DNA from: an uncultured Bacteroidales bacterium
Lineage (GTDB): Bacteria > Bacteroidota > Bacteroidia > Bacteroidales > GCA-2748055
DNA length: 64,000 nt
Assembly (NCBI GenBank): GCA_963753765.1
Contig: CAVWDQ010000023.1
Span: forward strand, 136,586 to 200,585
Reading direction: 5' to 3'
Below the pieces are notes generated by a model, which was given only the letters and a program-made list of their open reading frames with translations, was not told the origin of the DNA and searched no databases. A program made the translations under genes and the position numbers. Positions 9,349 through 45,307 of this stretch are shown here, in pieces. The stretch's first letter is position 1; each line of letters opens with the position of its first letter.

Positions 9349-10399
9349 TCAGGCTTTTGTTGCATCAGGCTCCGGAGTGGTGGCAAAGCCATGGGTCGTC
9401 TCAACCATGGCCCGGATATTCTCTGAAGGAGTATCGGGTGGAATGGCGCAGCCTGCATTGATCATCAGCCTGGGAGAGTCACGGTAAATCTCCAGCAGCT
9501 CTAAAGTCTTCTGCTTCACCAGCTCCGGACTTCCATAGTTTAAAACACCCGAGGGATCCAGGTTCCCGATAAAAAGTGTGGAAGCATGGCATTGGTCGTA
9601 GATCTTCTGAATATCAGTAAGGTAATCCAGTTCCAGGGCATCGGCCCCGGTCTGTACCATATCCTCCAGGATCACTTCCGTATCCCCGCAAATATGCAGT
9701 GTATAAGTCAATCCCAGGCGATGTGCTTCATTCCACCAGTTTTTTCTCGTAGGGAAGGGCAAATTCCCGGTAGAACTCCGGCGGGATCATCTCGGGACCG
9801 GCCACACTATCGCCATTGGAAACCATATGGGCACCGGTCTCCGCCATCAGCCTGATAAACTGAAGCCCCGCTTCGGTGGTATAATCCAGCAAGCGGTGTA
9901 CTGCCTCAGGATCCATGAGCAGATCAGTCATCAGTTCCTGTGATCCGCGTACCATGCTGGCCAGCGAGAAAGGTGCCTGATCGCAGTTCCCCCGGATATA
10001 CTTTTCCTCTCCAAAATAGTCCTTTACAATCCGTGTAATCTCCAGCCAGTGCTGGATTCCCGCATCCTTGGCCACATTCACAGGGGCCATGTCCTGAACT
10101 TCCTCCAGGGAAGAGATCAGGCCGCCGTGGGTGCGTGCAGGTTCATCCTCCGGGTAGTCCACCGGCACCCCAAGAGAACCGGCCAGGGTGGCCGTACTCA
10201 AATCGATCAGCAATCCATCAATATTATATTTTTCAGCAGCATGGATAAAGGCCCTTGCTGCTGACTGCGGGTCTTCCCCGAACTCTTTCATGCTAATACC
10301 CTCTTCACGGGCTGCCATCAAAAAATTGTGGAGCATCACGGGACGCCTGTCGGTCCATTTTCCCTCCAAAGCTGCCTGAATACGTTCTTTTCCGGTCAT
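9349..10399 (-). pseudogene. uroporphyrinogen decarboxylase family (MtaA/CmuA-like) protein, one frameshift
   Basis: Minus-strand ORFs 9728-10399 and 9349-9762. The N-terminus KERIQAALEGKWTDRRPVM and the C-half YTLHICGDTEVILEDMVQTGADALELD are typical of the URO-D family. The frames join at FALPYEK / NWWNEAHRLG inside the T6 run at 9740-9745 (A6 on the coding strand). Confidence 0.75.
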
Positions 10400-10430: not shown

Positions 10431-11762
10431 TTATTTATTTTTTCTTTCGATCTCCTCCAGGGTCATATTGCTGGTTTCGAACAGGAATTTACGGAATATG
10501 AAGAAACCTGCAAAGGTCATCACCGAAAAGAAGGCAAAGCTGAGACCAATCCCCACACCATCTCCGAAAGCCCCGGCTACAACCGGAAAGAGAAAGGTGA
10601 TGCTGCCATTGACGATCCAGACAGCGAAAGAACCCATGGCCACTCCCCTGGAGCGAATGCGATTGGGGAATACCTCCGCCAGAAGAACAAATACCACTGC
10701 GCCCATAGATCCTGCAAATGAAGCCACAAAGCCAATCAGAAAGAAGAGCATCACGCCCCCTCCGAAAGGATCAAAGAGAAATTCAAGCGCGAATAGTCCG
10801 AGGAAAAGGGCCATACTCAACATACCGGTAAGTAACATTTTCCTGCGGCCAAGGCGGTCGATAAAGCGCATGGCCAGAATGGTGAACACCAGGTTCACCA
10901 GTCCCAGGATCACGGTCTGCCCGATGGCCGAATCGGTGGAAAAACCTGCGGCACGAAAGACATCTGTAGCGTAGTACATGACAACTGCAATACCTGTAAA
11001 CTGGGCAAACATTCCAATGGTGATCCCAATGAAGGTGAATTTCCGGTTGGGTTTTTTAAAGAGACGCTCCTTTTTCTCCAGCTTTTCAGTATCCAGTGAC
11101 TTCCGGATCTCATCCAGGATTCCCTCCGTATCTTCGTCCGGATTAAGCTCCCTGATGATCTTTTCTGCTTCCTCCAGCTTTCCAATCTTAATAAGCCACC
11201 TGGGGCTCCTTGCTACCCGGTATAGGAGCACCAGGAAGAAGAGAGCCGGCAGAATTTCCGATAAAAACATAAATCTCCAGTTATTGGGACCCGTATGAAT
11301 CAGGAGATAATCCACAAAGAAAGCCACCAGGATCCCCAGCACAATCGCCAGCTGAAAGGAAACAATCAACCTGCCCCTGTGTGAGGCCGGTGCAATCTCC
11401 GATATATAGGTAGGAGAAAGTACCGAGGCAATTCCCACTGCAAGTCCACCGATAAAGCGGGCCAGAATAAAAACCTGAATATGGGGTGCCAGGCCGGTGC
11501 CGAAAGCAGACAAAAGAAAGAGGATGGCAGATAGCTTGAGCATATCCCGCCTGCCATATCGATCCCCGGGCCTGCCAGCCCCGATGGCCCCCACAATACA
11601 TCCAAGCAGGGCAGAGCTTACTGCCCAGCCCGTCATCACGTCACTCAGGCCAAAGTGGCCGGTAAAGAAGGGAAGTGCACCGTTAATTACGGCCGTGTCA
11701 AATCCATAAAGCAGTCCACCTATGGCAGCCACAAGGGTATAAAGCAGGAGTTTTCTTTTCAT
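10431..11762 (-). CDS. MFS sugar porter family transporter
   Basis: Start at ATG 11762 (MKRKLLLYTLVAA). Sugar-porter signatures are GFDTAVINGALPF, GRPGDRYGRRDML, ARSPRWLIK and PNRIRSRG, with multiple hydrophobic helices. Confidence 0.85.
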   Translation of the reverse strand: MKRKLLLYTLVAAIGGLLYGFDTAVINGALPFFTGHFGLSDVMTGWAVSSALLGCIVGAIGAGRPGDRYGRRDMLKLSAILFLLSAFGTGLAPHIQVFILARFIGGLAVGIASVLSPTYISEIAPASHRGRLIVSFQLAIVLGILVAFFVDYLLIHTGPNNWRFMFLSEILPALFFLVLLYRVARSPRWLIKIGKLEEAEKIIRELNPDEDTEGILDEIRKSLDTEKLEKKERLFKKPNRKFTFIGITIGMFAQFTGIAVVMYYATDVFRAAGFSTDSAIGQTVILGLVNLVFTILAMRFIDRLGRRKMLLTGMLSMALFLGLFALEFLFDPFGGGVMLFFLIGFVASFAGSMGAVVFVLLAEVFPNRIRSRGVAMGSFAVWIVNGSITFLFPVVAGAFGDGVGIGLSFAFFSVMTFAGFFIFRKFLFETSNMTLEEIERKNK

Positions 11763-11825
11763 ATGAATCGGTGAGAGCACATAAAAATAACCTTCTTTTC
11801 AGAAAAAACTACTATTTTCAAGCCT

Positions 11826-12793
11826 ATGAATGCGAAAGTCAAAATACCCTGGGAAGAACGACCTCAAGGATCCTCTGATGTGATCTGGCGCTATTCCGGG
11901 AACCCGATCATCGGGCGGTATGAGATCCCCTCCTCAAACAGCATCTTCAATAGTGCAGTGGTCCCTTTCGGGGAGGGATATGCAGGTGTATTCCGCTGCG
12001 ACAACAAAGCGGTGCAAATGAACATCCATGCCGGATTCAGCCGGGATGGCATCCACTGGGAGATCGAGCATCATCCCATCGAGATGCAGCCTGGCAACAC
12101 AGCGATGATCGAATCTGATTACAAATATGATCCCCGGGTAACCTGGTTGGAGGACAGGTACTGGGTGAGCTGGTGCAACGGCTATCACGGTCCCACCATC
12201 GGAATTGCCTATACTTTCGATTTCAAGGAATTCTTCCAGTGCGAAAATGCCTTTCTTCCCTTCAACCGGAACGGAGTCCTTTTTCCCGAGCGAATTGATG
12301 GCAAATATGCCATGCTTAGCCGTCCCAGCGACAACGGACATACACCCTTCGGGGACATATACATCAGCTTCAGTCCCGACATGAAATACTGGGGGGAACA
12401 CCGCTGTGTTATGAAGGTGAGTCCCTTTGAACAAAGTGCCTGGCAATGCACCAAGATTGGCGCAGGTTCTGTCCCCATACCCACAGATGATGGATGGCTG
12501 ATCTTCTATCACGGTGTCATTAATACCTGCAATGGTTTCCGATATTCCATGGGGGCTGCGATCCTGGACCTGAAGATCCATCCAGGGTCCTTTACCGTAC
12601 CCAGCCCTATATGCTTGCTCCTGCCCTCCCGTACGAACTTGCCGGGGATGTCCCCAATGTGCTGTTCCCAACAGCCGCTCTATGCGATGAGGAAAAAGTA
12701 GCTATCTACTATGGGGCTGCGGATACCGTAGTTGGACTGGCTTTTGGATATCTTTCCGAGATCCTCGATTTCACCAGATCCAACTCAATCTGA
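11826..12793 (+). pseudogene. GH130 beta-mannoside phosphorylase family, one frameshift
   Basis: ORFs 11826-12701 (frame 0) and 12611-12793 (frame 2). [18 protein letters not shown]...[16 protein letters not shown]...[19 protein letters not shown] is GH130-like. Frame 2 reads [37 protein letters not shown]. Joining at about 12572 gives [15 protein letters not shown]. Confidence 0.85.
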
Positions 12794-12839
12794 CAGAAGA
12801 AAAAGTTACATTTGTTTTATTATTTCCCAAAAACCTATC

Positions 12840-14093
12840 ATGGAAAGAAGAGACTTCTTAAAGAAAAGCGTGCTCGGAGCAGCAGCTTTTACCATTGTAC
12901 CCCGACATGTACTCGGGGGACCCGGTTTTACGGCTCCCAGTGACCAGATTACCAAAGCCATCATTGGTGTAGGAGGAATCGGATACAACCACCATTTCAC
13001 GCGCGAAGGACGCCTGGTGGCCGTATGCGATGTGGACCGCCTTCACCTGGAAAGAGCCCTTAAGAGAGCCGGCGAAGGAATAAAAGGCTATTCAGATTTC
13101 CGTGAGCTGCTGCTTCAGAAAGATATTGATATCGTTCATATTGCTACTCCCCCCCACTGGCATGGAACCATGTCGGTGATGGCTGCAGAAGCCGGGAAGG
13201 ATATCTGGTGCGAAAAACCCATGACGCGTACCATTGGAGAAGGCAAACGGGTTATAGAGGCCGTACAGAACAATGGAAGCATGTTCAGGCTGAACACCTG
13301 GTTCCGTTTCAGAGGTGGATTCTACGGGCTGGGTACTGAGGTGAAGCCTTTAAAGAAAATCGTTGACAGCGGCGTACTGGGATGGCCCCTGAAGGTCACC
13401 GTCTCCGGAATCACCGGCTACGACTGGAAGTTTTACTGGAGTGGTGATACAAACCTGAAGCCAGAGCCGGTACCTGAGAACCTGGATTATAATATGTGGC
13501 TGGGCCCTGCTCCGGTCAAACCCTACAATCCTCTAAGGGTACACTCCAAGTTCCGTGGCTTCTGGGATTATGACGGGGGCGGACTGGGTGATATGGGTCA
13601 GCATTACCTGGATCCCGTACAATATATGCTCAATAAGGACCATACCAGCCCCATTAAGGTGGAAGTGGATGCGCCACAGCAACATCCCGATGCCGTAGGA
13701 TCATGGCGCAGGATCACCTATACTTATGAAGATGGCTGCCAGATCATCCTGGATGGAGAGAACAGGGACAAGGATGCCGCTTACATTGAAGGACCCAATG
13801 GGAAGATCTTCCGCGGTTTCCGTTCCACCATACCCAACATACAGCAACTGGCTGCTACCCTGCCCGATCCGGAACCACAGATTACATCCTTTCATGAATC
13901 GGTTCGGACCCGTCAGAAATTTGCACTCAATGAGATGAACGGACACCGCTCATGTACCGTTGTCAACATGGGTGTGGCCGCACTAAGACTTGGACGTACC
14001 CTTCATTTCGATCCTGTAAAACAGGAGTTTATCAATGATGAAGGAGCCAACCGGCTGATCTATCCCGAGATGCGTTCACCCTGGAATATTTAA
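12840..14093 (+). CDS. Gfo/Idh/MocA family oxidoreductase with Tat signal
   Basis: ATG 12840 gives MERRDFLKKSVLGAAAFTIVP (RRDFLKK Tat motif). It has the Rossmann motif IIGVGGIGYNHH and the WCEKPMT motif typical of the family. Confidence 0.85.
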   Translation: MERRDFLKKSVLGAAAFTIVPRHVLGGPGFTAPSDQITKAIIGVGGIGYNHHFTREGRLVAVCDVDRLHLERALKRAGEGIKGYSDFRELLLQKDIDIVHIATPPHWHGTMSVMAAEAGKDIWCEKPMTRTIGEGKRVIEAVQNNGSMFRLNTWFRFRGGFYGLGTEVKPLKKIVDSGVLGWPLKVTVSGITGYDWKFYWSGDTNLKPEPVPENLDYNMWLGPAPVKPYNPLRVHSKFRGFWDYDGGGLGDMGQHYLDPVQYMLNKDHTSPIKVEVDAPQQHPDAVGSWRRITYTYEDGCQIILDGENRDKDAAYIEGPNGKIFRGFRSTIPNIQQLAATLPDPEPQITSFHESVRTRQKFALNEMNGHRSCTVVNMGVAALRLGRTLHFDPVKQEFINDEGANRLIYPEMRSPWNI

Positions 14094-14124
14094 AAAGTTG
14101 CAATAGATTATAAAGCTTACAAGA

Positions 14125-17100
14125 ATGAAACATATCAGAATATCCCTCATTGCACTGTTTACCCTGCTGCTGCTTAGCAATCCGCTTACAGCACAGGATA
14201 AGCGAACAACTGAAACCAAAGTGGCCGACCTGCTGGTACAGGTGCCTGCTGCCGATCAGCAAAAGCTGAATGAACAAATGCAATCCATGCTCAGCCTGGA
14301 GGAAGCAGGCTTGCAAATGATCATGGACCTGGTCATTCCCCCCGGAACAGGTGACGACACCAAAGCACGCACGGCCATTGAGAGCCTGTCGCGCTATCTC
14401 AGTCAGCCCGGCATGGAAATGCAACAAGTCCGCTGGGAAGAAATGATTCTGAAAGAGATTGAACTCAGGGATAATCCCCTGGTAAAAAGCTTTTTCATCC
14501 GTCAACTTAACTATTTCGGAAGTGAAGTAGCCATTGAGAGTCTCAAAGTCTACCTGATTGATCCTGAACTACAGGATCCTGTGATAAGGGCCATACGGGA
14601 TATTGATCCGGAAGAAGCTGCAGATCTATTTGCAGATCAACTGGACAAGTGTGATGGAAGATTGCAGATCGCCCTGGTCAATGCCATCGCAGAATGCGGG
14701 AACAGCAATCACGCCGAGGCCATAGCAAGTCTTGCAGGGAGCAGTTCTCCGGAACTCCAGAGAAGCGTACTGGCCTGCCTGGCAGAATTGGGAAATCCCG
14801 AATCACATGCACTCTTAAGTAATACAGCCAAAAAAACAGGCTATTTACCTGAGCCTACCCGGGCCACCAGCAGCCTGATTGTCTACGCACAGACTTTATC
14901 CAGGCAAAACAATTCGGACCTGAGTCTGAAAATTTGTAAAAGTCTGATGAAAAAGTGTACAGCTCCTGAGCAGGTTCACTTCAGGAACGCCGCCCTGATC
15001 ACCGCTGCAGACAGCGAATCCATGGAGAAAAGCATCCACCTGCTGTTGAATGCCATGAAGGAAGATAATAAGGTCTATCGAATGACGGCCATCCGCTATG
15101 CAGCAAAAAACAACACCCCGGTCAATCCCTGGATCTCTGAGCTTAAAAGCATTAAAAACAGTGAGGTGAAAGCTGAGATTCTCAGCCTGTTCGGAATGCT
15201 TAAAAGCGACGAAACTGTGGTTATTCTTAACAGCTATCTGGACGATCAGGATTCTACTGTGCGCCAACAGGCTGTTCTTAGCCTGGCACTGATCAAGCAT
15301 AGTGAAGCAGTTCCCGACATTCTTAAGTACAACATTTCCTATCCCCATGAGCCGGATAGTAAGACCGCCAAAGCAGCGCTATTGCAGACCGTGAGCCTGG
15401 ATCAGCTTCCTTTGCTTACAAAAGAGCTGGACAATGCACCTGAAGGGGCAAAAGTTGTATTGATAGAAGTGATTGCAGCCAGGGGCGACCCAGAATCCTT
15501 TGATATCCTGTACGATCAGATTTCACAAACAGGAGCTGTAAGGTCAGCTGCCATGAAGAATCTCTATCTGGTTTCCGACCAGGGAGACCTGGGGGATCTG
15601 ATGAAGCTTTTTGATCAGCTGGAAGACGAAGATGAAATTGCAGCCATTGAGGCAGCACTGGTAGCCTCCATAAACCGTGGATCCCATAAGGAGGTGACCA
15701 CCCAGGCCCTGTTATTGCATGCCGCCAGAAACTTTTCCGTAGAGAAATATATTGGAGTGCTGGCCACTGTGGGTGGTAAAGAGGCCCTGGAGGCCGTTTA
15801 TGAATCCTATGGCAGCGGGGACGAAGAAACACGGAAGAGGGCCTTTACCGGGCTGACAAAGTCGGACGATATTCATGCTGCCTCTCCCCTCTTCGAAATC
15901 TGCTCACAATCCAGCGTTGACCAGGAGATAGAAGAAGCCTTTCAAAGCTATGTGAGGATAGTGTACTCATCCTCGCTTCCAGATGACCAGAAACTGCTCT
16001 TATTAAGGAAAATTGCACCCTATTCAGGCAGCGTCCGCAACACGGGTCGCTTGCTAAGAGCCATGGGTGGAATAAAGACCTTCCTGAGTTTTGTGACCCT
16101 CAGTACTTTCATGGACCAGGAAGAACTGAAAAGCCAGGCGGCCAATGCACTGGTTAATGTGGTGCTGCCCAGTAATGGACTGGACAATGGAATGACGGGA
16201 GAACTGGTGAAGGAAAAACTAATCAAAGCCAGTGATATCATCACCGGTCCGGATACCGAGTACCTGAAGATCGACATCCAGAACTACCTGGACAAGATGC
16301 CGGATGAACCGGGATTTGTCTCCATGTTTAACGGAAGCGATCTGGCAGGTTGGCAGGGACTGGCCACCGACCCGGTGAGCAAAGCGAAGCTTTCCGAAAA
16401 ACAACTTCAAAAGCTCCAGGATGAGGCCAATGAGAAAGTGAAGGAGAACTGGAGCGTCAAAGACAATTGCATCGTGTTTAACGGCGATGGTTCAAACCTC
16501 TGCAGCATCAAGGAGTATGGTTCTTTTGAAATGATCGTTGACTGGAGAATCACCAAAAAAGGGGATTCAGGCATTTACCTGCGCGGGACACCCCAGGTAC
16601 AGATCTGGGATACTTCCAGGGTGGAAGCTGGTGCCCAGGTTGGTTCTGGTGGATTATACAACAACCAGGAACATGAAAGCATCCCGCTGCTGGTGGCAGA
16701 TAATCCCATTGGTGACTGGAATACTTTCCGTATTACCATGATAGATGATAAGGTTACCGTCTACCTCAACGGTCAGCTTGTGGTTGACAATGTGGTCATG
16801 GAGAACTACTGGGACAGAAGCATTCCCATCTTCCCCACCGGCTCCATTGAACTTCAGGCCCATGGCACTGACCTGGCTTTCAGGGATATTTATGTGAGAG
16901 AACTTAATGTGGATGCAAACAAACTCACCAAAGAGGAAAAAGAAGAAGGATTTGTCAGCCTTTTCAATGGCAAGGACCTTTCTAACTGGGCCGGCAACGA
17001 GCACAGCTACAGTGTGGAGGATGGGACCATTGTGATCCGTCCGGCTAAAAGCGGTGGAAACCTGTATACGGAGAAGGAGTATGCTGATTTTATTTTCCGT

Positions 17101-17517
17101 TTCGAGTTCAAACTGACTCCCGGTGCCAATAACGGCCTGGGTGTCCGCACTCCCATGGAAGGAGATGCAGCCTATGTAGGATATGAGCTGCAGATTCTGG
17201 ATAATACAGCCGAGGTATATGCCAAGCTGGAACCCTACCAATACCATGGATCAGTTTATGGCATTATCCCGGCCCTTAGGGGATACCTGAATCCGGTAGG
17301 TGAATGGAATTCCCAGGAAGTCTACATGAAAGGAGACAAGATCAGGATCACACTAAACGGTACTGTCATCGTGGATGGGGACCTGAAGGAGGCCAGTAAA
17401 AATGGCACGGCCGATCACCTGGAACACCCCGGATTGGAACGGACCAGCGGCCATATCGGTTTTCTGGGACATGGTTCACTGCTCTGGTTCCGGAATATCC
17501 GGATCAAAGAGTTATAA
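14125..17517 (+). CDS. large secreted protein: N-terminal HEAT/ARM-like repeats plus two C-terminal DUF1080 (3-keto-disaccharide hydrolase family) domains
   Basis: Intact 1130-aa ORF with a signal peptide. About 720 aa of HEAT-like repeats (e.g. NAIAECGNSNHAEAIASLAGSSSPELQRSVLACLAELGNPES) come first. Two DUF1080-like modules follow, each starting GFVS(M/L)FNG.DL..W and ending (LAFRDIYVREL / LWFRNIRIKEL). Confidence 0.75.
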   Translation: MKHIRISLIALFTLLLLSNPLTAQDKRTTETKVADLLVQVPAADQQKLNEQMQSMLSLEEAGLQMIMDLVIPPGTGDDTKARTAIESLSRYLSQPGMEMQQVRWEEMILKEIELRDNPLVKSFFIRQLNYFGSEVAIESLKVYLIDPELQDPVIRAIRDIDPEEAADLFADQLDKCDGRLQIALVNAIAECGNSNHAEAIASLAGSSSPELQRSVLACLAELGNPESHALLSNTAKKTGYLPEPTRATSSLIVYAQTLSRQNNSDLSLKICKSLMKKCTAPEQVHFRNAALITAADSESMEKSIHLLLNAMKEDNKVYRMTAIRYAAKNNTPVNPWISELKSIKNSEVKAEILSLFGMLKSDETVVILNSYLDDQDSTVRQQAVLSLALIKHSEAVPDILKYNISYPHEPDSKTAKAALLQTVSLDQLPLLTKELDNAPEGAKVVLIEVIAARGDPESFDILYDQISQTGAVRSAAMKNLYLVSDQGDLGDLMKLFDQLEDEDEIAAIEAALVASINRGSHKEVTTQALLLHAARNFSVEKYIGVLATVGGKEALEAVYESYGSGDEETRKRAFTGLTKSDDIHAASPLFEICSQSSVDQEIEEAFQSYVRIVYSSSLPDDQKLLLLRKIAPYSGSVRNTGRLLRAMGGIKTFLSFVTLSTFMDQEELKSQAANALVNVVLPSNGLDNGMTGELVKEKLIKASDIITGPDTEYLKIDIQNYLDKMPDEPGFVSMFNGSDLAGWQGLATDPVSKAKLSEKQLQKLQDEANEKVKENWSVKDNCIVFNGDGSNLCSIKEYGSFEMIVDWRITKKGDSGIYLRGTPQVQIWDTSRVEAGAQVGSGGLYNNQEHESIPLLVADNPIGDWNTFRITMIDDKVTVYLNGQLVVDNVVMENYWDRSIPIFPTGSIELQAHGTDLAFRDIYVRELNVDANKLTKEEKEEGFVSLFNGKDLSNWAGNEHSYSVEDGTIVIRPAKSGGNLYTEKEYADFIFRFEFKLTPGANNGLGVRTPMEGDAAYVGYELQILDNTAEVYAKLEPYQYHGSVYGIIPALRGYLNPVGEWNSQEVYMKGDKIRITLNGTVIVDGDLKEASKNGTADHLEHPGLERTSGHIGFLGHGSLLWFRNIRIKEL

Positions 17518-17521: not shown

Positions 17522-17546
17522 TGCTGATCCTATCTAAGGGTCAGCA
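17522..17546. terminator. candidate bidirectional hairpin terminator between convergent genes
   Basis: TGCTGATCC (17522-17530) and GGGTCAGCA (17538-17546) form an imperfect 9-bp stem (one mismatch) with a 7-nt loop. It lies between the stop of the + gene (17517) and the stop of the - gene (17530). Confidence 0.35.
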
Positions 17547-18872
17547 CTATAATTGTATCGATGGGTTTTACCTTCTCTTTGGGGATGGTAAGGACCATGC
17601 CTGACTTTCCCTTCTTGACCTTCACCTCCACTTTGGATCCATCATCAAAGAATTGAGCTGATTTGATCTTGGGTAAATAGCCCTCAATCTCGATGGAACC
17701 TTCACCGGGATCCAGCACATGGACATAGACCATATTCCCCTTGCTGGTGGTGGCACCCCACTCCTGCGGCTTTACTGGTCCGCCCCGGGTTCCATAGATA
17801 GCATCACCGTTTGCTTCCAGCCAGTTCCCGATGGCCATGAGGGTATCCACATTTTCGGGCTGGATCCTTCCATTTGGCATGGGGCCTGTATTAAGCAGGA
17901 AATTGGCTCCATAGCCAGCTGCACGGACCATGGTATGAATCAGCTTCTCCACCGACTTGTAGTTCTGATCGACAATATTGAATCCCCAGGATCCGTTCAT
18001 GGTCTCGCACATCTCCAGCGGCACCTGATCGGATATTCCTGTATTGTTGAAACCCATGGAATTCTCTCCTGGCAGATCACGTTCGAACATCATGAAATCC
18101 TCGCCCGGGAAGGGCATTTTATGATGGTTACTTCCAATAAGCGCTCCGGGCTGATGTTTGTGAATAAGGGCATAGGTCTCATCCAGCCGCCAATCAGCAT
18201 CGGGCTTATCCCACATGCCATCGAACCATATCCCGCCGATCTCCCCGTACTGGGTAAGCAATTCGCTTAAGCTGGGTATTCATATAATCGATATAGGCGT
18301 TAAAGTCACCCGACTGCGACCTGTCTGCAATCCCGTTCCCGGTGCGTCCATGGGGGAAATAATCAGGATGGTGCCAGTCCAGCTGACGAATGGTAGAAAA
18401 AGAGCTTCACACCCTGTTTGTCACACTCCTCCTTTAGCATGCCAATCACATCCTTGCCATAGGGGGTGGCATCCACAATGTTATAATCGCTGACCTTCGA
18501 ATCGTACATGGCAAATCCGTCGTGGTGCTTGCTGGTAATGGTAATGTACTTCATCCCTGCCTTTTTTACCATGGATACCCACTCGGCCGCATCAAACTGG
18601 GTTGGATTAAAGAAGCCTGGCAGCTTCTCATACTGTACGATGGGAATATCCTTTCTTTCCATGATCCACTCGGCAATCCCCTGATCGCCTCCGCCACCCA
18701 TGATGGAATATACACCCCAGTGAACAAAGAGGCCGTATTTTGCATCCTGGAACCACTCACGGTTATCCAGGTTCTCCTGGGTGGGTACATATCCCTCCTG
18801 GGCAGTTAAATACGTGCTCAGGAATCCTGCAAAAAGTGCAAGTACAAAAAATCTTGATAACTTAGGTCTCAT
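17530..18872 (-). pseudogene. GH29 alpha-L-fucosidase, two frameshifts
   Basis: Minus-strand ORFs 18363-18872 (N-terminal, FQDAKYGLFVHWGVYS, KHHDGFAMYDS) and 17530-18261 (C-terminal, GEIGGIWFDG). The roughly 100-nt gap reads in the third frame as LDWHHPDYFPHGRTGNGIADRSQSGDFNAYIDYMNTQL. The shifts are near 18386 and 18267-18268. Confidence 0.85.
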
Positions 18873-18950: not shown

Positions 18951-20451
18951 ATGAGACAAATCACTTTTATCAGTCTGGTTTTCCTCAGCGCTCTCCTTAG
19001 CTGCTCAGAAACCCAATGTTCTGTTTATAATATCTGACGACCTGAATACGCGGATCGGACCCTACATGGAAATTGATCAGCACACACCCCACCTGGACCA
19101 GCTGGCAGCTGAGGGGGTTCGTTTTACAAGGACCTATTGCCAGTTCCCCCTGTGTGGTCCTTCACGCGCTTCGCTTATGAGCGGACTGTACCCGGAGACC
19201 AATGGGATTCTTAAGAATATCGACCGGCCCGGAAGCTATCGCGTGGAGAATCCCTCCCTGAGCAATCACCCCTCCCTGGCAGGATATTTTCGAGAGCAGG
19301 GATATTTTACTGCCCGTGTTTCCAAGATATATCACATGGGTGTTCCCGGTGGCATTGAACGGGGCGATCCCGGGGGAGATGATCCCGATTCCTGGGATTA
19401 TTCCTACAATGTTATGGGACCAGAGACACATAGTCCGGGCACCCTGGAACTGCTCTCCCCGGGGAATCTGCACTATGGTTCAAATTTCTCCCGCATGATC
19501 CTGGAAGATGGTTCCGAAGAAACTCAGGCCGACTACCTGGCTACCAGTCAGGCCATTGCCATTCTGGAGAACCGTGCCGGCGAACTGGACACCTTAAGCA
19601 GGTCCAAACAAAAGATAAAGCCCCGGGCCCCCTTTTTCCTGGCCGTTGGGCTGGTGCGGCCCCACGTGCCTCTTATTGCCCCGGAAAACTGTTTTGTGCC
19701 CTACCCTGTGGAGGATGTACAACTTCCACCGGTGATGGTTGCGGACAATGTCCCTGAAGATGCCCTGCGCAGACAGAATATGAAAATATGGAAGATGGAT
19801 GATATCCAGAAGAAAAAGACCATCAGTGCATACATGGCCAGTGTCCGCTTTATGGACCAGCAGGTGGGAAGGCTGCTGGATGCCTTGGACCGATTGGGAT
19901 TAAGGGAGGAGACCATTGTGGTTTTTGTTTCGGATCATGGCTACAACCTGGGGGAACATGACTGCTGGTCCAAGGTGAGTCTCTGGGAAGGAAGTGTGCG
20001 TGTCCCTATGATCATCTCCAGTCCGGGTGAAGGCATGGAACATGGCATCAGCTGTGAATCCATTACCGAACTTATTGATCTCTATCCCACCTTAACAGAA
20101 TTATGCGGTCTTCAAACAGAGCAGCCCGGGATTCTTCAGGGGAAAAGTCTGACAGGCTACCTTAAAGGGGAGGATACCCCATCGGAAAAATCTCTTGCTT
20201 ACACAATCAGCCACCAGGGAAATGATGCCAGTATCCGGACCAACAGGTGGAGATACACCCGCTGGGGTGAGGAGATTGAAACAGGTAATGAAGAGCTCTA
20301 TGATCACCTGGAAGACCCGGAAGAGCACAACAACCTGGCCGGCAGGCCTGATATGCAGGAGACGCTTGCCGGGCTCAGGATACAATTTGAGCAGGCCAGA
20401 AACAGAGCCCGCAGCAATCAATCCGCTTTAGCTCAGCAAGAAGTCCATTAG
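18951..20451 (+). pseudogene. sulfatase (formylglycine-dependent), frameshift inside the signal peptide
   Basis: ORF 19066-20451 carries CGPSRASLMSG (the CxPSR FGly motif). Its frame is open back to 18955 (AAQKPNVLFIISDD) but contains no start codon. ATG 18951 in frame 0 encodes MRQITFISLVFLSALL. Removing one base near 18994-18997 joins the two. Confidence 0.85.
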
Positions 20452-20454: not shown

Positions 20455-21240
20455 CTACTTTACTTTCTGGAAATACCTTACATAGTCAATCTTATATTCC
20501 ACAGGTAGAAGACTGGTATCAACTCCCTGCTGGCCTCCCCAGCTTCCCCCGTAGGCCAGGTTAAGAAGCAAATAGTGCGGCTTATCGAAGGGCCAGGTAT
20601 CGTTATTCCCGGTCCTGTCATTTTCAAAGGAAAAGTAGAGCGAATCGTCCATGTAGAAATCCATATGGTCCTCGAACCACTCCACTGCATAAATATGGAA
20701 ATCTGACCAGGGGTCCTTAACCTCGATCTGATTCCCCTTGTTGGTCCCAATGCTATGATTATAGGCTTTGGTATGGATATTTGCGTGGATCCGGTCGGGA
20801 TCATAACCTACATGCTCCATGATATCTATCTCCCCGCAGGCAGGCCAGCCCAGCTCACTTCTGTTGGTCCCCAGCATCCAGATGGCAGGCCAGGTTCCCA
20901 GGGCCGAAGGTATCTGTGCCCTCACTTCAATCCTTCCATAGAGGAAATCCTTCCTGCCAAGGGTATTGATAGATGCAGAGGTGATTGAATCTTCCCCTTC
21001 CACACGGGCTGTAATGATGCAGTGCCCATCTTCTACCCTGACATTATCAAGCTCATAGGTATAGTACTGTAGCTCATTGTTCCTTATATATCCGGTTTCG
21101 TAGCCCCAGTTTTCCGCATTTGGAGAACCGGAATATTCAAACTCCTCGGACCAGACCAGGTCCCAACTCTCTTTCTCAGCGCATCCCTGGAACAGGGCCA
21201 TGGCCAGCAACAATAAAAGAAAATGGCTGAAGTGTTTCAT
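20455..21240 (-). CDS. GH16 beta-glucanase/laminarinase-like lipoprotein
   Basis: ATG at 21240 (MKHFSHFLLLLLAMALFQGC lipobox). It has WPAIWMLG and the catalytic GEIDIMEH (ExDxxE) motif. Confidence 0.85.
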   Translation of the reverse strand: MKHFSHFLLLLLAMALFQGCAEKESWDLVWSEEFEYSGSPNAENWGYETGYIRNNELQYYTYELDNVRVEDGHCIITARVEGEDSITSASINTLGRKDFLYGRIEVRAQIPSALGTWPAIWMLGTNRSELGWPACGEIDIMEHVGYDPDRIHANIHTKAYNHSIGTNKGNQIEVKDPWSDFHIYAVEWFEDHMDFYMDDSLYFSFENDRTGNNDTWPFDKPHYLLLNLAYGGSWGGQQGVDTSLLPVEYKIDYVRYFQKVK

Positions 21241-21350
21241 GATTTGGGTTTTAGTAGTTGAATCAATGCTTGACAGACTGCAATTTAACAAACTCTTTCC
21301 TATATTTATGTAGCATCCTGTTTTTTCCAAACAGCAAAAGAATAAAGAGC

Positions 21351-24300
21351 ATGAAAGCTAAGCATACCTTACTTCTGATCCTGGTAATCATCCTGGTATT
21401 GATTCCTGAACACGGCTTAAGTCAGGTTAAGATCTGGGAAGAAAGCCTTAGTCTGCCTACCTATGAGCCCATGGCTGCGGATAAAAATCCCATGTTCTAT
21501 GTTCCCGATGCCTATCAGGGCGCCAAAAGAGTGATCTATCCCTATGCCCTGATGGATAATCTTTCCACCGAAAAAACGGACCAGGAGCACAAGGCGGTTT
21601 ACCTGGAAAACGAGTATATAAAACTTTGTCTCCTGCCTGATATAGGTGGCCGTCTCTTTTATGCCACTGATAAGACCAATAATTATGAAATTTTCTACCG
21701 CCAACATGTAATTAAACCTGCCAATATTGGGATGCTGGGTGCCTGGATTTCAGGAGGGATCGAATGGTGCGTTTTCCATCATCACCGTGCCTCAACCCAC
21801 CTGCCCGTAGACTACAGACTTGTTGAAAACAGTGATGGCAGTAAGACCATCTGGTTTGGAGAGTATGAACCCAGGCATCGTATGAAATGGAGCATTGGGC
21901 TGACCCTTCGTCCCGGCAGAAATTATATTGAAACGGATGTGAGAATGTTCAACCCTACCGAACACACGCACTCCATCCTATACTGGGCCAATGTGGCCAC
22001 CCATGTGAATGAAGACTACCAGGCCATCTTCCCGCCTTCTGTTCACCAGGGAGTATATCATGCAAAAAACAGCTTTATCCACTGGCCCATCTCCGATGAA
22101 ATATACAATGGGAAAGACTATACCGGGGAAATTGACGTGAGCTGGTGGAAGAACCACCCGGATCCCATCTCGATTTTTGCCTATGACCTGCAGGACGATT
22201 TCATGGGCGGCTACGATCACGCCAGGGATGCCGGAACAGTACATGTGGGAAATCACCACATTGTGAAAGGAGCAAAACTCTGGGAATGGGGCCCGGGTGA
22301 ATACGGAAGTATGTGGGATAGTGAGATTCTTACCGATGAAGACGGACCCTATGCTGAGCTTATGGTAGGAGCTTTTTCTGATAACCAGCCCGACTACAGC
22401 TGGATCAAACCCGGCGAGGTAAAGAGTCTGAAGCAATACTGGTACCCGGTCCGGGATATTGGAGGGTTTAAAAAAGCGAACCTTAATGCTGCGGTAAACC
22501 TGGAGCTTAGCAGTTCGAATGAATTACGCATTGGAATTAACGCCACGCAGGAACTCCTGGCTTGCAGAGTGGTACTTATGGAGAATGAGGATATTATCTT
22601 AGAAGAACAGATCGATATCGGACCAGGCAATCCATACAGCTCACAAATTAAAGTGGAAGAAAATGCGGATCTCACCAGCTACAGGCTTCGTTTGCTGGAC
22701 CGATACGATAATGAGCTTATCTCATACCAGGAGCAGCTTACCGTATATGAAGCAGAACTTCCGGCTTTAGTAAATCCACCCGGAAAACCCTCAGAAATAG
22801 AGAATCTGGAAGAGCTGGTACTGACCGGTCAGCGGATCATGCAGTTTCATAATCCGACACTGGATCCCGAGGACTATTTCCTGGAGGCATTACGCAGGGA
22901 TCCCTATAATTCACTGGCCAACCTGCATCTGGGAAACCTTGCTGCAAAGGCTGGGAAATACGATGAAGCAGCGGATTACTACCGCAATACAATCCACCGG
23001 ATTACCAAAGACTATACCAGGCCCCGCGATTGTGAAGCCTTTTACAGACTGGGGGTTGTGCTGAAAAAACAGAAGAAATATGATGCTGCCATAGATACCC
23101 TTTACCGGGCCACCTGGGACCAGGCCTGGTATGCTGCTGCTTATAAGGAACTGGCAGGGATCTCCATGCTGGAAGGCCATTTTGAAGAGGCCCTGGACCA
23201 TCTGAATCATTCACTCTCAATGAATGCGATCAATCCTTTGACCTATGCACTGAAATCAGCGGTTCTGCGGCATCTTAAGAACAGGGCCGAAGCCGGAATC
23301 AGTGCCAGGAGAGCCCTGGTACTGGACCCGCTGGATCATATGGCTTCTTACGAACTCTTGCAAAACAAGGCCATTCCCCCTTCAGAATTCACTACCCTAC
23401 TGAACGATAATAAAGAGAACTACCTGGAACTGGCCTGCGTGTATATAAATTCAGGCTTATACCCGGAAGCTGCAGGAGTGATCGACATGGCATTAAAATC
23501 CGGGGATAAGGTCCTTAACTCCTACCCGATCCTCCATTACTATGGTGCATGGTTGGCTGAGCAGCAGGAAGACAAAGAGCTTGCCAGTGAATATTATGCC
23601 TCTGCTTCAGCTGCATCCACCGATTATGTTTTTCCTTTCCGTTTCGAAACCATCGGAATTCTGGAAGCAGCCATTGAATTCAATCCCAATGATGCCAGGG
23701 CATGGTACTACATGGGTAACATTTTGTATGATCATCAGCCCGGCAAGGCGATTGATTGCTGGAAAAAGGCCGTAGAACTTGATCAAAGCTTAGCTATTGC
23801 CCACCGTAACCTGGGCTGGGGCTACTACCGCTACCTGGATGATATTGAAGGTGCCATCGGCCATTATGAAAAGGCAGTAAGTTTGAAAGGGGATGATCCC
23901 AGATACTATTATGAACTGGATGTATTGTATGAGATGAATAATGAATCCCTGGATATCAGGCTGGGGCTATTCTCTTCCAATCCAGAGGTGGTCAGAAAGA
24001 GGAACGATTCCTACCTCAGAGAAATAGAGGTACTATTACTGAACGGCAAGTACGATAATGCCATCTTCCGCTTAACGACACATACCTTTCTTCGCCAGGA
24101 AGGAGTAGTGAACCTGCACAATCTGTTTGTGGATGCACAGCTGTTGAAAGGAAGGGAGCTCCTTCAGTCAGGAGCTTATGCTCTGGCCCTTGAGCAATTT
24201 CTGCTTGCCGATACCTATCCTTCCAACCAGCGGATCGGACGCATCACCGATTACCAGAAAGAGGCCCAGATATACTATTTCACCGGTCTGGCCTACCTGG

Positions 24301-24668
24301 CCATGGATGAGAAAGGACAGGCAAAAAAATACTTCAAAAAGGCCGTGGATACTCCGGTGGGGAATTCAGAATACCTCTATTACCGGTCCCTGTCCCAAAA
24401 AGAACTGGGCCAGGAGGATGAAGCCACTGCATCGGCTCTGAAGCTGATTAATTCCGGAGAGGAGGCCCTGGCTCTTACAGGTGATGCAGATTTCTTTGCC
24501 AAATTCGGGGAGAAGGTGAGTGTAAACACCCGCAAAGCATACGCCTATTACCACATGGCACTGGGATATCAGGCATCCGGAGATACTGTAAAGGCACAGG
24601 AGGCTTTCTTACAGGCCCTGGAACTGAGAAACAGCATCCTCTGGGCCAATGTATTTGCAGAACTATGA
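21351..24668 (+). CDS. DUF5107 domain protein with C-terminal TPR repeats
   Basis: ATG 21351 (MKAKHTLLLILVIILVL signal). The N-terminal half (LPTYEP...NPMF...YPY...ENEYIKLCLLPDIGGRLF...GGIEWCVFHHHR) matches my recollection of DUF5107. The C-terminal half is TPR-like (LGNLAAKAGKYDEAADYY, AWYYMGNILYD). Confidence 0.7.
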   Translation: MKAKHTLLLILVIILVLIPEHGLSQVKIWEESLSLPTYEPMAADKNPMFYVPDAYQGAKRVIYPYALMDNLSTEKTDQEHKAVYLENEYIKLCLLPDIGGRLFYATDKTNNYEIFYRQHVIKPANIGMLGAWISGGIEWCVFHHHRASTHLPVDYRLVENSDGSKTIWFGEYEPRHRMKWSIGLTLRPGRNYIETDVRMFNPTEHTHSILYWANVATHVNEDYQAIFPPSVHQGVYHAKNSFIHWPISDEIYNGKDYTGEIDVSWWKNHPDPISIFAYDLQDDFMGGYDHARDAGTVHVGNHHIVKGAKLWEWGPGEYGSMWDSEILTDEDGPYAELMVGAFSDNQPDYSWIKPGEVKSLKQYWYPVRDIGGFKKANLNAAVNLELSSSNELRIGINATQELLACRVVLMENEDIILEEQIDIGPGNPYSSQIKVEENADLTSYRLRLLDRYDNELISYQEQLTVYEAELPALVNPPGKPSEIENLEELVLTGQRIMQFHNPTLDPEDYFLEALRRDPYNSLANLHLGNLAAKAGKYDEAADYYRNTIHRITKDYTRPRDCEAFYRLGVVLKKQKKYDAAIDTLYRATWDQAWYAAAYKELAGISMLEGHFEEALDHLNHSLSMNAINPLTYALKSAVLRHLKNRAEAGISARRALVLDPLDHMASYELLQNKAIPPSEFTTLLNDNKENYLELACVYINSGLYPEAAGVIDMALKSGDKVLNSYPILHYYGAWLAEQQEDKELASEYYASASAASTDYVFPFRFETIGILEAAIEFNPNDARAWYYMGNILYDHQPGKAIDCWKKAVELDQSLAIAHRNLGWGYYRYLDDIEGAIGHYEKAVSLKGDDPRYYYELDVLYEMNNESLDIRLGLFSSNPEVVRKRNDSYLREIEVLLLNGKYDNAIFRLTTHTFLRQEGVVNLHNLFVDAQLLKGRELLQSGAYALALEQFLLADTYPSNQRIGRITDYQKEAQIYYFTGLAYLAMDEKGQAKKYFKKAVDTPVGNSEYLYYRSLSQKELGQEDEATASALKLINSGEEALALTGDADFFAKFGEKVSVNTRKAYAYYHMALGYQASGDTVKAQEAFLQALELRNSILWANVFAEL

Positions 24669-24725: not shown

Positions 24726-26124
24726 ATGATGAATTTTAAACGATGGTATTTTATGCTCTTTGGGATAATTGTATTTTTTACACTTAATGCCCAGGAGGCA
24801 CTGCATAAGGGCCCAGCCACCGATCTAAGCAAAGGTAGGCTCCAGGTAAGCGAGAATGGCAGGTTTCTGAAATATGCCAATGGCGATCCTTTCTTCTATC
24901 TGGGAGAGACCGCCTGGGAGCTCTTCCACCGCCTATCCTATAAGGAAGTGGAAATGTTCCTGGAAAATCGCAGGGAAAAAGGTTTTACTGTGATACAGGC
25001 GGTTATCCTGGCCGAGGAGAATGGTTTGATCAGCCCCTTCGGTTAACGGAGAAGTTCCGCTGGTCGACCTGGACCTGAACAGGCCTAACGAACAGTACTT
25101 TTTATTTGTGGATTCCATCGTAAAACTGGCAGCCTCGAAAGGATTGTTTATGGGACTCCTGCCCACCTGGGGCGATAAAGTGGATAAGCAATGGGGACAG
25201 GGACCGGTAATCTTCAACCCGGAGAATGCCTATGACTATGGTCAATTCCTGGGTGAGAGGTATAAGGACCATCCCAATATCATCTGGATCAATGGCGGAG
25301 ACCGGCAATGCAAGGGAAACGAGGAAGTCTGGAATGCCCTTGCAAGGGGAATCCGATCGGCCGACAATAATCACCTGATGACCTTTCATCCCATGGGTCC
25401 GGGATCCTCATCGGAGTGCTTCCAGCAGGAAGAATGGCTCGATTTTAACATGCATCAGTCGGGTCATGGCGATCGTTATATTCCTAATTACCGGAAGATC
25501 ATGGCCGATTACGCCCTCTCCCCTCCCAAACCCTGCATGGATGCCGAACCCATCTATGAGTCGCATCCCTTTAGCTGGAATCCGAAAAACGGCATTGCAG
25601 GGGATGATGAAGTGCGCCGGGCTGCCTACTGGGCCCTCTTTTCCGGGGCACACGGACATACCTATGGCAATCATTGCATCTGGCAATGCTACTCGGAGAA
25701 AGTGAAACCGGTAAATTATCCTCCCATGTACTGGTACGAAGCCCTTGACCTGCCGGGTGCCTGGGATATGCTTCATGTGCGCAATCTGATGGAGTCGAGA
25801 CCCATGCTCCATCGCTACCCCGACCAGTCGATGATTTTTGGAAACGCCGGCGCTACCATCGATCACATCGCAGCCACCCAGGGGGATGGCTATGTGTTCA
25901 TTTACCTGCCTTCGAACCACGAGGTGATCGTGGAATTCAGACATATCAAAGGTGAAGCTTTCAAAACCTGGTGGTACAATCCACGCAATGGAGAGGCTGT
26001 ATTTATCAAAGAGATCACAGGACATCCCCGGGAATCCTTCCGCGTACCGGTCACCGGAGTGGATTGGGTGCTGGTCATTGACGATGCCTCCCGTGACTTT
26101 CCTGAACCAGGAAAAACCATGTAA
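24726..26124 (+). pseudogene. DUF4038 / GH140-like glycoside hydrolase, one frameshift
   Basis: ORFs 24726-25046 (frame 0) and 25108-26124 (frame 1, open from 25030). [15 protein letters not shown]...[15 protein letters not shown] continues as [24 protein letters not shown]. The join is at the C4 run 25034-25037. Confidence 0.7.
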
Positions 26125-28574: not shown

Positions 28575-29383
28575 ATGAAACTGGGAATCAGTACGTATAC
28601 CTATACCTGGTCGGTGGGAGTGCCGGGATCGGAACCCGAAAAACCCTGGGATGAAATGGTACTTGTAAATAAAGCAGCAGAACTGGAAGTGGATTGCCTC
28701 CAGATCGCCGACAACCTGCCCCTCCACCTTATGGATGAACAGAGACTCCTGGCCCTGAAACAACTGGCCGGTGAATCAGACATAGAGTTGGAGGTAGGAG
28801 CCAGAAGCATGACACCTGATATGCTTCAGCGCTACATAGAAATTGCAGACCTGCTGGCTTCACCCATCCTTCGTTTTGTGATCGATGGTCCGGATTTCAA
28901 ACCCTCCGTGGAAGAGGTAATCAGCATTGTAAGATCTGCTGTTCCGGAACTGGAAAAACGGGGAATCCGCCTGGCCATTGAGAACCACGACCGTTTGCAG
29001 GCCAGGGAGTTTCTGGATATTGTCCGGGGATCTCAGAGTGAGCATGTGGGCATCTGTCTCGATTCGGTCAATTCCATGGGTGCCGGGGAAGGCATAGAGA
29101 CCATCACCACCCTCCTGGCCCCCTACACTTTCAATTTGCACATCAAGGAATTTATTGTGGAGCGGCATCCGCACATGATGGGATTTAGCATAGAAGGACG
29201 GCCTGTGGGTCAGGGTCAGCTGCCCCTGTGCCTGGATGCTGGAGCAACTGGGCCCTCAGTGCCAGTCGGCCATCCTGGAGTCCTGGACCCCTCCGGAAGA
29301 GACGCATTGAAAAGACCATGGACAAGGAGACTGAATGGGCCATAGAGAGCATTAAATACCTAAAAACCAACTTTTTTAAATAA
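28575..29383 (+). pseudogene. sugar phosphate isomerase/epimerase (xylose-isomerase-like TIM barrel), two frameshifts near the 3' end
   Basis: Frame 0 reads MKLGISTYTY...IRLAIENHD...GICLDSVNS...GQGQLPL. Frame 1 then reads WMLEQLGPQCQSAILESWTPPEE. Frame 2 then reads RIEKTMDKETEWAIESIKYLKTNFFK, ending at the TAA 29381-29383. The shifts are near 29229 and 29300. Confidence 0.7.
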
Positions 29384-30292: not shown

Positions 30293-31326
30293 ATGAAACC
30301 TTTGAAATTTGCAATTTTTGGGACAGGATTCTGGTCCCAGTTCCAGCTGGGTGGCTGGCAGGAGTTGGAGGGGATTGAGTGCGTGGCTCTCTACAATCGC
30401 ACCAAATCAAAGGCCGAGGACCTGGCTAAACGCTTTGGTGTTCCCACCGCCTACGATGATGCTGAAGTCCTGATGAAAAACGAAGAACTGGATTTCATCG
30501 ACATTATTACCGATGTGGACACCCATGCTGCGTTTACTGCCCTTGGAGCGAAGTATGGAAAGGATGTGATTTGTCAGAAACCCATGGCTCCCGATTTTGA
30601 AACCGCCAAAGAAATGATGGATGTATGCAGAAAAGCAGGAGTCCGTTTCTATCGTGCACGAGAATTACCGCTGGCAGCCACAGTTCAGAAGGGTCAGGCA
30701 AATTCTGGATGAAGGAATAATTGGCAAGCCTTTCCGCTGCAAAACACGGATTCAACACTGCCTTCCCGGTATTCGAAACCCAACCTTTCCTGGCCACCCT
30801 GGAAAACTTCGCCCTTACCGACCAGGGATCCCACCAGTTTGATGTGCTGCGCTACCTCTTTGGAGAGGCCCAATCCATCTACACGCAGATCCAGACTGTT
30901 AATCCCACCATCAAAGGGGAGGATGTGGCCACCAGTCTGCTTCGCATGAAAAACGGAGTGGTTTGCATCCAGGAGATCTCCTTCAGTTCACCGCTGGAAA
31001 AAGAAGTATTTCCACAGACCCTCCTGCTGATCGAAGGAGACAAGGGAAGTATTCGCCTGGATGCCGATTTTGAGATCAGCATCACCGTGGGAACAGAAAC
31101 CCGGAGCGAAGTGGTGGAAATGAAATCCTATCCATGGCAGACAGATCGCCTGGTACCGGAGCCCCCAAGCATTGTGGATTGCAACAACGATATCCTGCAG
31201 GATATGCTTGGCAAAGGAAAGGCCGAAACCACGGGTGATGACAATTTTGAAACCGTGCGCCTTGTCTGGGCCGCTTACGAATCGGCCAGAACCAGTGAAG
31301 TGGTGCAGATGGATCAATTCTCTTAG
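30293..31326 (+). pseudogene. Gfo/Idh/MocA family oxidoreductase, two frameshifts
   Basis: Frame 2 reads MKPLKFAIFGTGFW...ICQKPMAPD...CRKAGVRF. Frame 0 then reads IVHENYRWQPQFRRVRQILDEGIIGKPFR. Frame 1 then reads AKHGFNTAFPVFETQPF...QMDQFS. The shifts are near 30648 and 30738. Confidence 0.8.
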
Positions 31327-45163: not shown

Positions 45164-45284
45164 ACCAGGGCTATACCCATTGCCTGTCTTGTATACCTTG
45201 TCACTATAAGTCAGAATTATTACTTTATGTTTCCATTTATAACCTTTTCAAGCTGATAAAAAAAGTCATTCAACGGTTGTTTAT

Positions 45285-45296
45285 TTAATCGATTAA
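45285..45296. promoter_or_regulatory. perfect 12-bp palindrome TTAATCGATTAA, candidate LacI-family operator
   Basis: Read directly from the sequence. It is centred on CG, as many LacI/GalR operators are, and lies 60-78 nt upstream of the possible starts of the LacI-type regulator gene. Confidence 0.35.
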
Positions 45297-45299
45297 GCA

Positions 45300-45307
45300 T
45301 ATATTTG
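45300..45307 (+). promoter_or_regulatory. candidate Bacteroidota -7 promoter element (TATATTTG, consensus TAnnTTTG)
   Basis: Exact match to TAnnTTTG, 49 nt upstream of ATG 45356 and 67 nt upstream of ATG 45374. It sits immediately 3' of the palindrome. Confidence 0.3.

Follow-up and report, generated by a model that had tools for sequence, protein, structure and literature searches.

A conserved gene pair of Bacteroidota encoding a Tat-type Gfo/Idh/MocA oxidoreductase and a HEAT-DUF1080 protein: a candidate unit for non-hydrolytic glycoside cleavage

The DNA analyzed here (the window) is a 64,000-nucleotide stretch of contig CAVWDQ010000023.1 (assembly GCA_963753765.1) from an uncultured Bacteroidales bacterium, and the subject of this report is a pair of adjacent genes on its forward strand. 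The first (12840-14093; ATG at 12840, stop codon ending at 14093) encodes a 417-residue oxidoreductase of the Gfo/Idh/MocA type with an N-terminus of the twin-arginine translocation (Tat) kind. The second (14125-17517) encodes a protein of 1130 residues, predicted to be secreted, in which a HEAT solenoid is followed by two DUF1080 domains, designated type A and type B. In the open reading frame (ORF) list the two are separated by a spacer of 31 nt (14094-14124, forward strand); co-transcription is likely, and the two genes probably form one operon. The octamer TAcaTTTG (12807-12814, forward strand), read from the sequence 25 nt ahead of the ATG, is a putative promoter, since it matches TAnnTTTG, which we take to be the Bacteroidetes −7 promoter consensus. 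Scanning 11.7-18 kb for sigma-70 promoters and terminators gave counts at or under shuffle expectation. Neither gene is interrupted, and full-length alignments with homologues show 87-93% identity, although several adjoining genes of the window are split. In the databases these homologues are named "HEAT repeat protein," "DUF1080 domain-containing protein," and "predicted dehydrogenase."

Pfam analysis of the oxidoreductase revealed a match to PF01408 (2.3e-20) and a far stronger one to PF19051 (GFO_IDH_MocA_C2; 1.3e-143, 477.5 bits), the latter covering model positions 1-254 of 254. Its N-terminal region, MERRDFLKKSVLGAAAFTIVPRHVLGG (12840-12920, forward strand), carries a twin-arginine motif and a hydrophobic stretch (ERRDFLKK, then SVLGAAAFTIV), and the motif RRxFL(K/R) is shared by essentially every one of the 120 nearest homologues. 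The score against the Tat model TIGR01409 is 13.6, which is under the cut-off of 16.7; by the motif criterion the oxidoreductase is a predicted Tat substrate and is presumably exported. Among 62 homologues the invariant motifs are GxGxxG (GVGGIG), C124-E125-K126-P127, which includes the lysine of the EKP motif (K126), and D251-x3-H255. The nearest solved structures by sequence are those of AL3 (8tdf, 8tdh; 5e-26), a glucoside 3-dehydrogenase, followed by DgpA. In a phmmer alignment D251-x3-H255 corresponds to Asp248 and His252 of AL3, and His252 contacts OH-3 (Nasseri et al. 2024, bioRxiv 10.1101/2024.03.25.586180). The further AL3 contacts Q161, R192, and W195 align to R, W, and Y in this low-confidence alignment, and Tyr349 lies outside the aligned region.

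The AlphaFold2 model of the oxidoreductase has a predicted local distance difference test (pLDDT) value of 78.6, and its best fold match is again AL3 (TM 0.71 and 0.66). DgpA, levoglucosan dehydrogenase, WlbA, and glucose-fructose oxidoreductase (GFOR) follow in that order. AL3, DgpA, levoglucosan dehydrogenase, and WlbA are sugar C3 dehydrogenases, whereas GFOR instead oxidizes C1 of glucose; for the enzyme at this locus we infer C3 regiochemistry. Assignment to the BT_2158_fam equivalog (NF058561) was considered and rejected, the score being 158 bits against a cut-off of 750, with only positions 1-285 of 487 covered. With its full-length PF19051 match the oxidoreductase represents a very highly conserved subfamily apart from BT2158.

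The long protein begins with a predicted Sec signal peptide of the signal peptidase I type (14125-14193, forward strand), whose leader, MKHIRISLIALFTLLLLSNPLTA, would be cleaved between LTA and QD and has no lipobox cysteine. Residues Q24 and D25 are nearly invariant in homologues, and the pLDDT is low at residues 19-24. The alpha-solenoid of HEAT-like repeats follows (14194-16299, forward strand; residues 24-725); HEAT_2 matches the whole protein with 93 bits and, when residues 24-725 are scanned alone, with 98 bits in five stretches. The AlphaFold2 model of the 1130-residue chain, built with 114 homologues, has a mean pLDDT of 89 and consists of approximately 42 helices over residues 29-724, these at pLDDT >90, and then two beta-jelly rolls. 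Foldseek matches of the solenoid are karyopherin-beta2, CAND1, and the PP2A A subunit, that is, generic protein-binding solenoids and none more specific. The jelly rolls correspond to DUF1080 type A (16300-16908, forward strand; residues 726-928), which has a conserved helical insert at about residues 750-775, and DUF1080 type B (16930-17514, forward strand; residues 936-1130). PF06439 (DUF1080) matches the protein in two stretches with a total of 290 bits, and both jelly rolls match 3u1x, 3hbk, 8v31, and 8tda; the fold is concanavalin-like, and the matches include the BT2/AL2 lyase-hydratase structures. The original prediction, made from the sequence alone, had described two genes with this spacing, a textbook Tat signal (RRDFLKK), some 720 residues of HEAT-like repeats, and two C-terminal DUF1080 modules; the ORF list and translations, the conserved motif (its subthreshold TIGR01409 score notwithstanding), the modeled helices, and the PF06439 matches bear this description out.

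A genome scan, with one genome per species, revealed relatives of the long protein in at least 599 species-level Bacteroidota genomes, the sources of the carriers being soil, freshwater, marine, and sediment. The 80 best relatives were examined and belong to the Bacteroidales, Cytophagales, Chitinophagales, Sphingobacteriales, and Flavobacteriales. Mariniphaga sediminis, Draconibacterium, Gaoshiqia hydrogeniformans, and Dyadobacter are among the cultured carriers. With the HEAT protein as anchor, an oxidoreductase gene (65-95% identical) lies directly upstream on the same strand at 75 of the 75 genome loci with upstream room; five apparent exceptions are artefacts that stem from the delimitation of the downstream gene. 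An independent sample, metagenome contigs anchored on the oxidoreductase, places the HEAT-scaffold gene directly downstream at all 78 loci with room, with a median intergenic gap of 28 nt. The pair is thus an essentially invariant unit, and the earlier expectation that the two genes are conserved as neighbors holds in both samples. The pairing also extends to variants with no DUF1080 domain or with one or three, wherever the upstream gene is readable; at locus L089 the contig ends within the upstream ORF. Across orders the oxidoreductase is 65-95% identical, compared with 40-87% for its partner, and at L085 it is 76% identical to that of the window while the HEAT part is 29% identical. Clustering of all flanking ORFs gave no third universal partner. 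Genes for glycoside hydrolase family 29 (GH29), major facilitator superfamily (MFS) transporters, ROK kinases, 2-keto-3-deoxy-6-phosphogluconate (KDPG) aldolase, GntP, and other flanking genes are confined to one or two clades.

To which part of the long protein this constancy applies is seen from its relatives. A search with the HEAT part alone (702 residues) against 1.84 billion cluster representatives retrieved 253 clusters at E≤1e-30, a number that rises to 3513 at E≤1e-3; the matches align in register and can be grouped into classes by length. Pfam scans and the loci reveal that the scaffold occurs alone (about 725 residues), joined to one, two, or three DUF1080 domains, or combined with an F5/8 type C domain plus a single DUF1080. 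In a class of shorter scaffolds (654-753 residues), the N-terminal part of the solenoid (about 34-203, in window residues) and its C-terminal part (about 613-723) are retained and the middle is deleted, consistent with how conservation is distributed within the family. The two ends are kept in all relatives and the middle is dispensable. That the HEAT-only class of about 725 residues might represent truncation at contig ends was considered; this is true of P0255, but the genes at L088 and L090 are complete and have downstream genes. The main structural point, which the original prediction missed, is therefore that the oxidoreductase and the HEAT scaffold make up a constant core, the scaffold being the constant partner of the enzyme, and DUF1080 is a variable payload present as zero to three fused copies or as a separate gene. 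Since the HEAT-only L090 has no DUF1080 nearby, the core may also have a DUF1080-independent function.

The original prediction had referred to DUF1080 as a hydrolase family. This no longer fits, since the activities currently assigned to BT2157/AL2 are those of a 3-keto-alpha-glucoside 1,2-lyase and 2-hydroxy-3-keto-glucal hydratase rather than a hydrolase (bioRxiv 10.1101/2024.03.25.586180). The conserved metal/active-site residues of BT2157 are E103, N134, E164, Q166, Y190, K245, Q273, and H275 (same source). Its sequence was taken from PDB alignments and aligned with domains A and B and with other solved DUF1080 proteins. In domain A the equivalents of N134, E164, Q166, Y190, Q273, and H275 are D814, Q824, Q826, Y845, Q911, and H913, with gaps opposite E103 and K245. 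In domain B they are N1002, E1021, Q1023, Y1045, L1114, and H1116, with a gap opposite E103 and a variable residue (E in the window) at K245. Four of the eight residues are thus kept in A and five in B, and the equivalents of Q166, Y190, and H275 are present in both; the ligand-complex entry 9fbe has Asn in place of H275. The resulting signatures are D-Q-Q-Y-Q-H for type A and N-E-Q-Y-L-H for type B. All six solved DUF1080 types aligned keep the core N-E-Q-Y-Q-H, which makes both A and B non-canonical. The earlier suggestion that the locus holds parts of a 3-keto-glycoside route stands as to the nearest structures of the oxidoreductase, which are C3-dehydrogenases, and falls short as to BT2158 equivalence and a complete BT2157 active site.

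The substitutions in A and B are invariant within the family and recur in scaffold relatives at only 24-39% identity. The A+B arrangement is the commonest pattern among relatives with two DUF1080 domains (25 representatives; 55 of 64 metagenome loci). Such constancy speaks for a selected function and against decay, and by these residues A and B are distinct, stably conserved DUF1080 subtypes with new active sites. At loci whose scaffold has type A only (L097-L100, L106), the gene immediately upstream of the oxidoreductase specifies a separate secreted DUF1080 protein of canonical signature (N-E-Q-Y-K-Q-H). From their likeness to BT2157/AL2 we infer lyase/hydratase activity for both types.

The same data bear on two other explanations. 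In one, the oxidoreductase would be the sole catalyst, either as an NAD-dependent glycosidase of the GH109/GH4-like kind or as a redox-neutral epimerase or isomerase, and the HEAT-DUF1080 protein would be a non-catalytic partner of lectin fold that presents the substrate. The departure of both domains from the canonical core, the concanavalin-like fold, the persistence of the pair in the complete absence of DUF1080 (L090 and the HEAT-only class), and the variant with an F5/8 type C binding domain at the position of a DUF1080 are all in keeping with this. However, invariance of the His275, Tyr190, and Gln166 equivalents at such low scaffold identity is unexpected for mere binding modules, and operons without a fused type B often contain a canonical BT2157-like gene. 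A GH109-like closest relation for the enzyme was rejected, no GH109 protein being among the PDB sequence matches or the 50 best structure matches listed. We consider a sole catalytic role for the oxidoreductase unlikely, if worth keeping in mind. In the other explanation, the DUF1080 domains would be conventional endo-glycanases resembling the xanthanase/lichenase THTE_1561, with the oxidoreductase acting independently on released sugars. Endo-xanthanase/lichenase activity has been reported for a DUF1080 protein, according to a remark in PMC9007349, and one homologue is named "family 16 glycoside hydrolase" by NCBI. Against this, BT2 does not possess the GH16 catalytic motif E-x-D-x-x-E (bioRxiv 10.1101/2024.03.25.586180), a motif not searched for in A and B, and strict one-to-one pairing with a Tat-exported dehydrogenase is hard to square with independent action; this proposal strikes us as very improbable.

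The gene neighborhoods of the relatives provide further indications. A GH29 gene adjoins the pair in 24 of 81 genome loci and 5 of 80 metagenome loci, plus L087; with three lineages involved, the association is recurrent but not universal. Genes for an MFS transporter and an ROK kinase lie upstream of the pair in 14-18 loci, and at seven of the 80 metagenome loci the pair is followed by a BT2158-like gene (474 bits) and a 360-residue Gfo gene without a Tat signal (e.g., L103). By tblastn none of the 81 genome loci (0/81) has a TIM-barrel homologue within 10 kb of the pair; a TIM barrel accompanies the pair only in variants L088 and L084, the order in L088 being TIM barrel, oxidoreductase, HEAT-only protein, and separate canonical DUF1080. 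Two further loci may be recorded. At L087 (3956-16450) a scaffold with three DUF1080 domains is clustered with a GH109-like Gfo gene, another DUF1080, GH29 plus F5/8 type C, GH20, and a lytic transglycosylase, a content reminiscent of host or complex-glycan degradation. At some flavobacterial short-scaffold loci, such as L133 (7966-9672), proteorhodopsin-type and beta-carotene dioxygenase genes lie just downstream of the pair, which shows free-living aquatic Bacteroidota to be among the carriers of the module.

These neighborhoods also raise the question of a housekeeping role in the cell envelope or periplasm, for instance in turning over or modifying a conserved glycan of the periplasm or outer membrane, with the HEAT protein as scaffold or adaptor. 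Oxidoreductase identities of 65-95% among Bacteroidales, Cytophagales, Chitinophagales, and Flavobacteriales would fit such a role, as would the position of the pair outside polysaccharide-utilization (SusC/D) loci, its non-carbohydrate neighbors in many genomes, and the occasional presence of lytic transglycosylase, GH20, and PIG-L deacetylase genes. The recurrent neighbors, on the other hand, are genes of catabolism and uptake (GH29, MFS, ROK kinase, BT2158-like, and cytoplasmic Gfo genes), and the characterized relatives of both proteins all belong to sugar catabolism, so that we regard a housekeeping function as quite unlikely.

We propose instead that the pair constitutes a periplasmic unit, organized on the HEAT scaffold, in which glycosides are cleaved in a redox-neutral manner through oxidation, elimination, and hydration; as a whole we would give this reading roughly even odds (about 0.5). 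The oxidoreductase would be exported in folded form through the Tat system with NAD(H) tightly bound and would oxidize a glycoside at C3. [quoted passage not shown] Re-reduction by the same enzyme would render the cycle redox-neutral, with no need for a periplasmic NAD pool. A closed cycle of this kind has been proposed for BT2158/AL3 (bioRxiv 10.1101/2024.03.25.586180, PMC8121099) and is known for GFOR, according to work cited in a passage of PMC8121099. As a partner dedicated to the oxidoreductase, the HEAT solenoid would dock the enzyme through its conserved N-terminal module and carry the DUF1080 payload at its C-terminal end, so that labile 3-keto intermediates could be handed over locally. 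Types A and B may be responsible for different steps, or for different anomers or substrates. That the two proteins form a complex, and that its substrate is a glycoside, is our surmise. A more ambitious version, in which the solenoid is an obligate subunit of a periplasmic assembly-line complex that channels labile 3-keto-glycosides, and A and B together replace the TIM-barrel beta-lyase and canonical DUF1080 of the Bacteroides pathway, is put forward only tentatively, and we lean toward doubting it.

Several observations weigh against the proposed unit. Neither DUF1080 domain carries the full BT2157 signature, both having lost E103 and K245; type A alters two proposed metal/active-site residues (N134D, E164Q), and type B is without the O4 ligand (Q273L). 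The AL3 substrate contacts Q161, R192, and W195 are unmatched in the oxidoreductase alignment, and its 158 bits lie well below the 750-bit BT_2158_fam cut-off. The inter-domain geometry of the long protein is uncertain (predicted TM score, pTM, 0.59), and a HEAT-only variant without a nearby DUF1080 exists (L090). The pair lies outside SusC/D loci and in many genomes has unrelated neighbors, among them chemotaxis, tRNA-guanine transglycosylase (TGT), LptF/LptG lipopolysaccharide-export permease, and rhodopsin genes, and an oxidoreductase conserved this strongly might instead have a housekeeping function. Literature searches revealed no biochemical or genetic data for any family member.

In the window itself the pair is flanked upstream by an MFS sugar porter gene (10431-11780, reverse strand) and a GH130 gene (11826-12701, forward strand). 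The GH130 ORF (291 residues) matches Pfam positions 7-268 of 320 only and the NCBIfam mannoside phosphorylase models partially, and it may be truncated. Downstream, a GH29 alpha-L-fucosidase is encoded by two ORFs convergent with the pair (17530-18872, reverse strand), followed by a sulfatase (19066-20451, forward strand) and a GH16 gene (20455-21330, reverse strand). A second giant repeat protein of this carbohydrate-gene neighborhood, with 1136 residues, an N-terminal DUF5107, and many tetratricopeptide (TPR) repeats, is encoded at 21258-24668 (forward strand). Besides the fucosidase gene, those for uroporphyrinogen decarboxylase (9349-10399, reverse strand), an apiosidase-like protein (24726-26124, forward strand), and a second Gfo/Idh/MocA protein (30293-31326, forward strand) are each split into two adjacent ORFs, which points to assembly indel errors or pseudogenes. 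The G+C content falls from about 0.49-0.52 to 0.43-0.48 past approximately 44 kb (44000-64000), and this segment may be compositionally distinct.

The original prediction had named a TIM barrel and a Gfo/Idh/MocA gene at 28.6-31.3 kb in connection with the 3-keto-glycoside route. Both exist, the Gfo gene in split form, and the TIM-barrel ORF (28575-29345, forward strand) ends in a stretch that is seemingly out of frame. A role in the unit was rejected, as neither product has a signal peptide and neither gene has a counterpart near the pair elsewhere, as in the 0 of 81 loci reported above for the TIM barrel. They lie among epimerase, RhaT-like transporter, and dehydrogenase genes indicative of cytoplasmic sugar catabolism.

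The oxidation-elimination-hydration route was elucidated only recently, from two clusters of gut Bacteroidales, and the module described here would, in another and more integrated form, extend it to at least 599 species-level Bacteroidota genomes. Two DUF1080 active-site subtypes, a conserved PF19051 dehydrogenase subfamily, and a periplasmic HEAT scaffold with the dehydrogenase as its only constant partner are now open to testing. If both the complex and the chemistry are real, glycoside-hydrolase counts alone would underestimate the glycan-degradation capacity of the carriers, and long HEAT solenoids would gain a defined role in the bacterial periplasm. Were the assembly-line version also true, it would be the first scaffolded non-Koshland (non-hydrolytic) glycoside cleavage, and one widespread in environmental Bacteroidota.

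The closest known systems are the stepwise 3-keto-glycoside pathways encoded by BT2156-BT2160 of Bacteroides thetaiotaomicron and AL1-AL5 of Alistipes (Liu et al. 2021, PMC8121099; Nasseri et al. 2024, bioRxiv 10.1101/2024.03.25.586180). As in the pair, a Tat-exported Gfo/Idh/MocA dehydrogenase and one or more secreted DUF1080 proteins are encoded side by side. AL3 is the closest solved structure for the oxidoreductase and BT2/AL2 for the DUF1080 domains, and the logic of a tightly bound cofactor in the periplasm, as proposed for the pair, is the same. By comparison, the dehydrogenase there is of about 487 residues, whereas here it is a 417-residue member of the PF19051 subfamily; a TIM-barrel beta-lyase belongs to those pathways, and the present module is without such a homologue by tblastn at the 81 genome loci; and no SusR-type regulator occurs among the recurrent neighbor clusters of the pair. 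The fusion of two non-canonical DUF1080 domains to a solenoid of about 700 residues has no counterpart in the BT or AL clusters.

Tandem DUF1080 domains are not new in themselves, as BT3469 (PDB 4jqt), the best Foldseek and phmmer match of the C-terminal half, has two such jelly rolls in one chain. This structural-genomics protein of 431 residues has no HEAT scaffold and no described function, and its second domain is canonical (N-E-Q-Y-K-Q-H). GFOR of Zymomonas mobilis resembles the oxidoreductase in fold and as a Tat-exported Gfo/Idh/MocA enzyme, and a passage of PMC8121099 cites it as having a non-dissociable nicotinamide cofactor and a redox-neutral ping-pong mechanism in the periplasm; it differs in oxidizing C1 of free glucose, in having no partner protein, and in being only about 18% identical. 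The LacABC lactose 3-dehydrogenase and DUF1080 clusters of Caulobacter and Pedobacter (Price et al. 2022, PMC9007349) likewise couple periplasmic glycoside 3-oxidation to DUF1080 proteins encoded nearby, but their dehydrogenases are membrane bound, depend on FAD and cytochrome c, and are not of the Gfo/Idh/MocA type, and they have no HEAT scaffold. No description of the HEAT-DUF1080 family or of its PF19051 oxidoreductase was found in the literature, in line with the earlier remark that no characterized fusion of two DUF1080 modules to a long HEAT scaffold was known to its author. The pair is best described as set apart from the known clusters by another dehydrogenase subfamily, two new DUF1080 active-site subtypes, the absence of a TIM-barrel lyase, and an obligatory HEAT scaffold.

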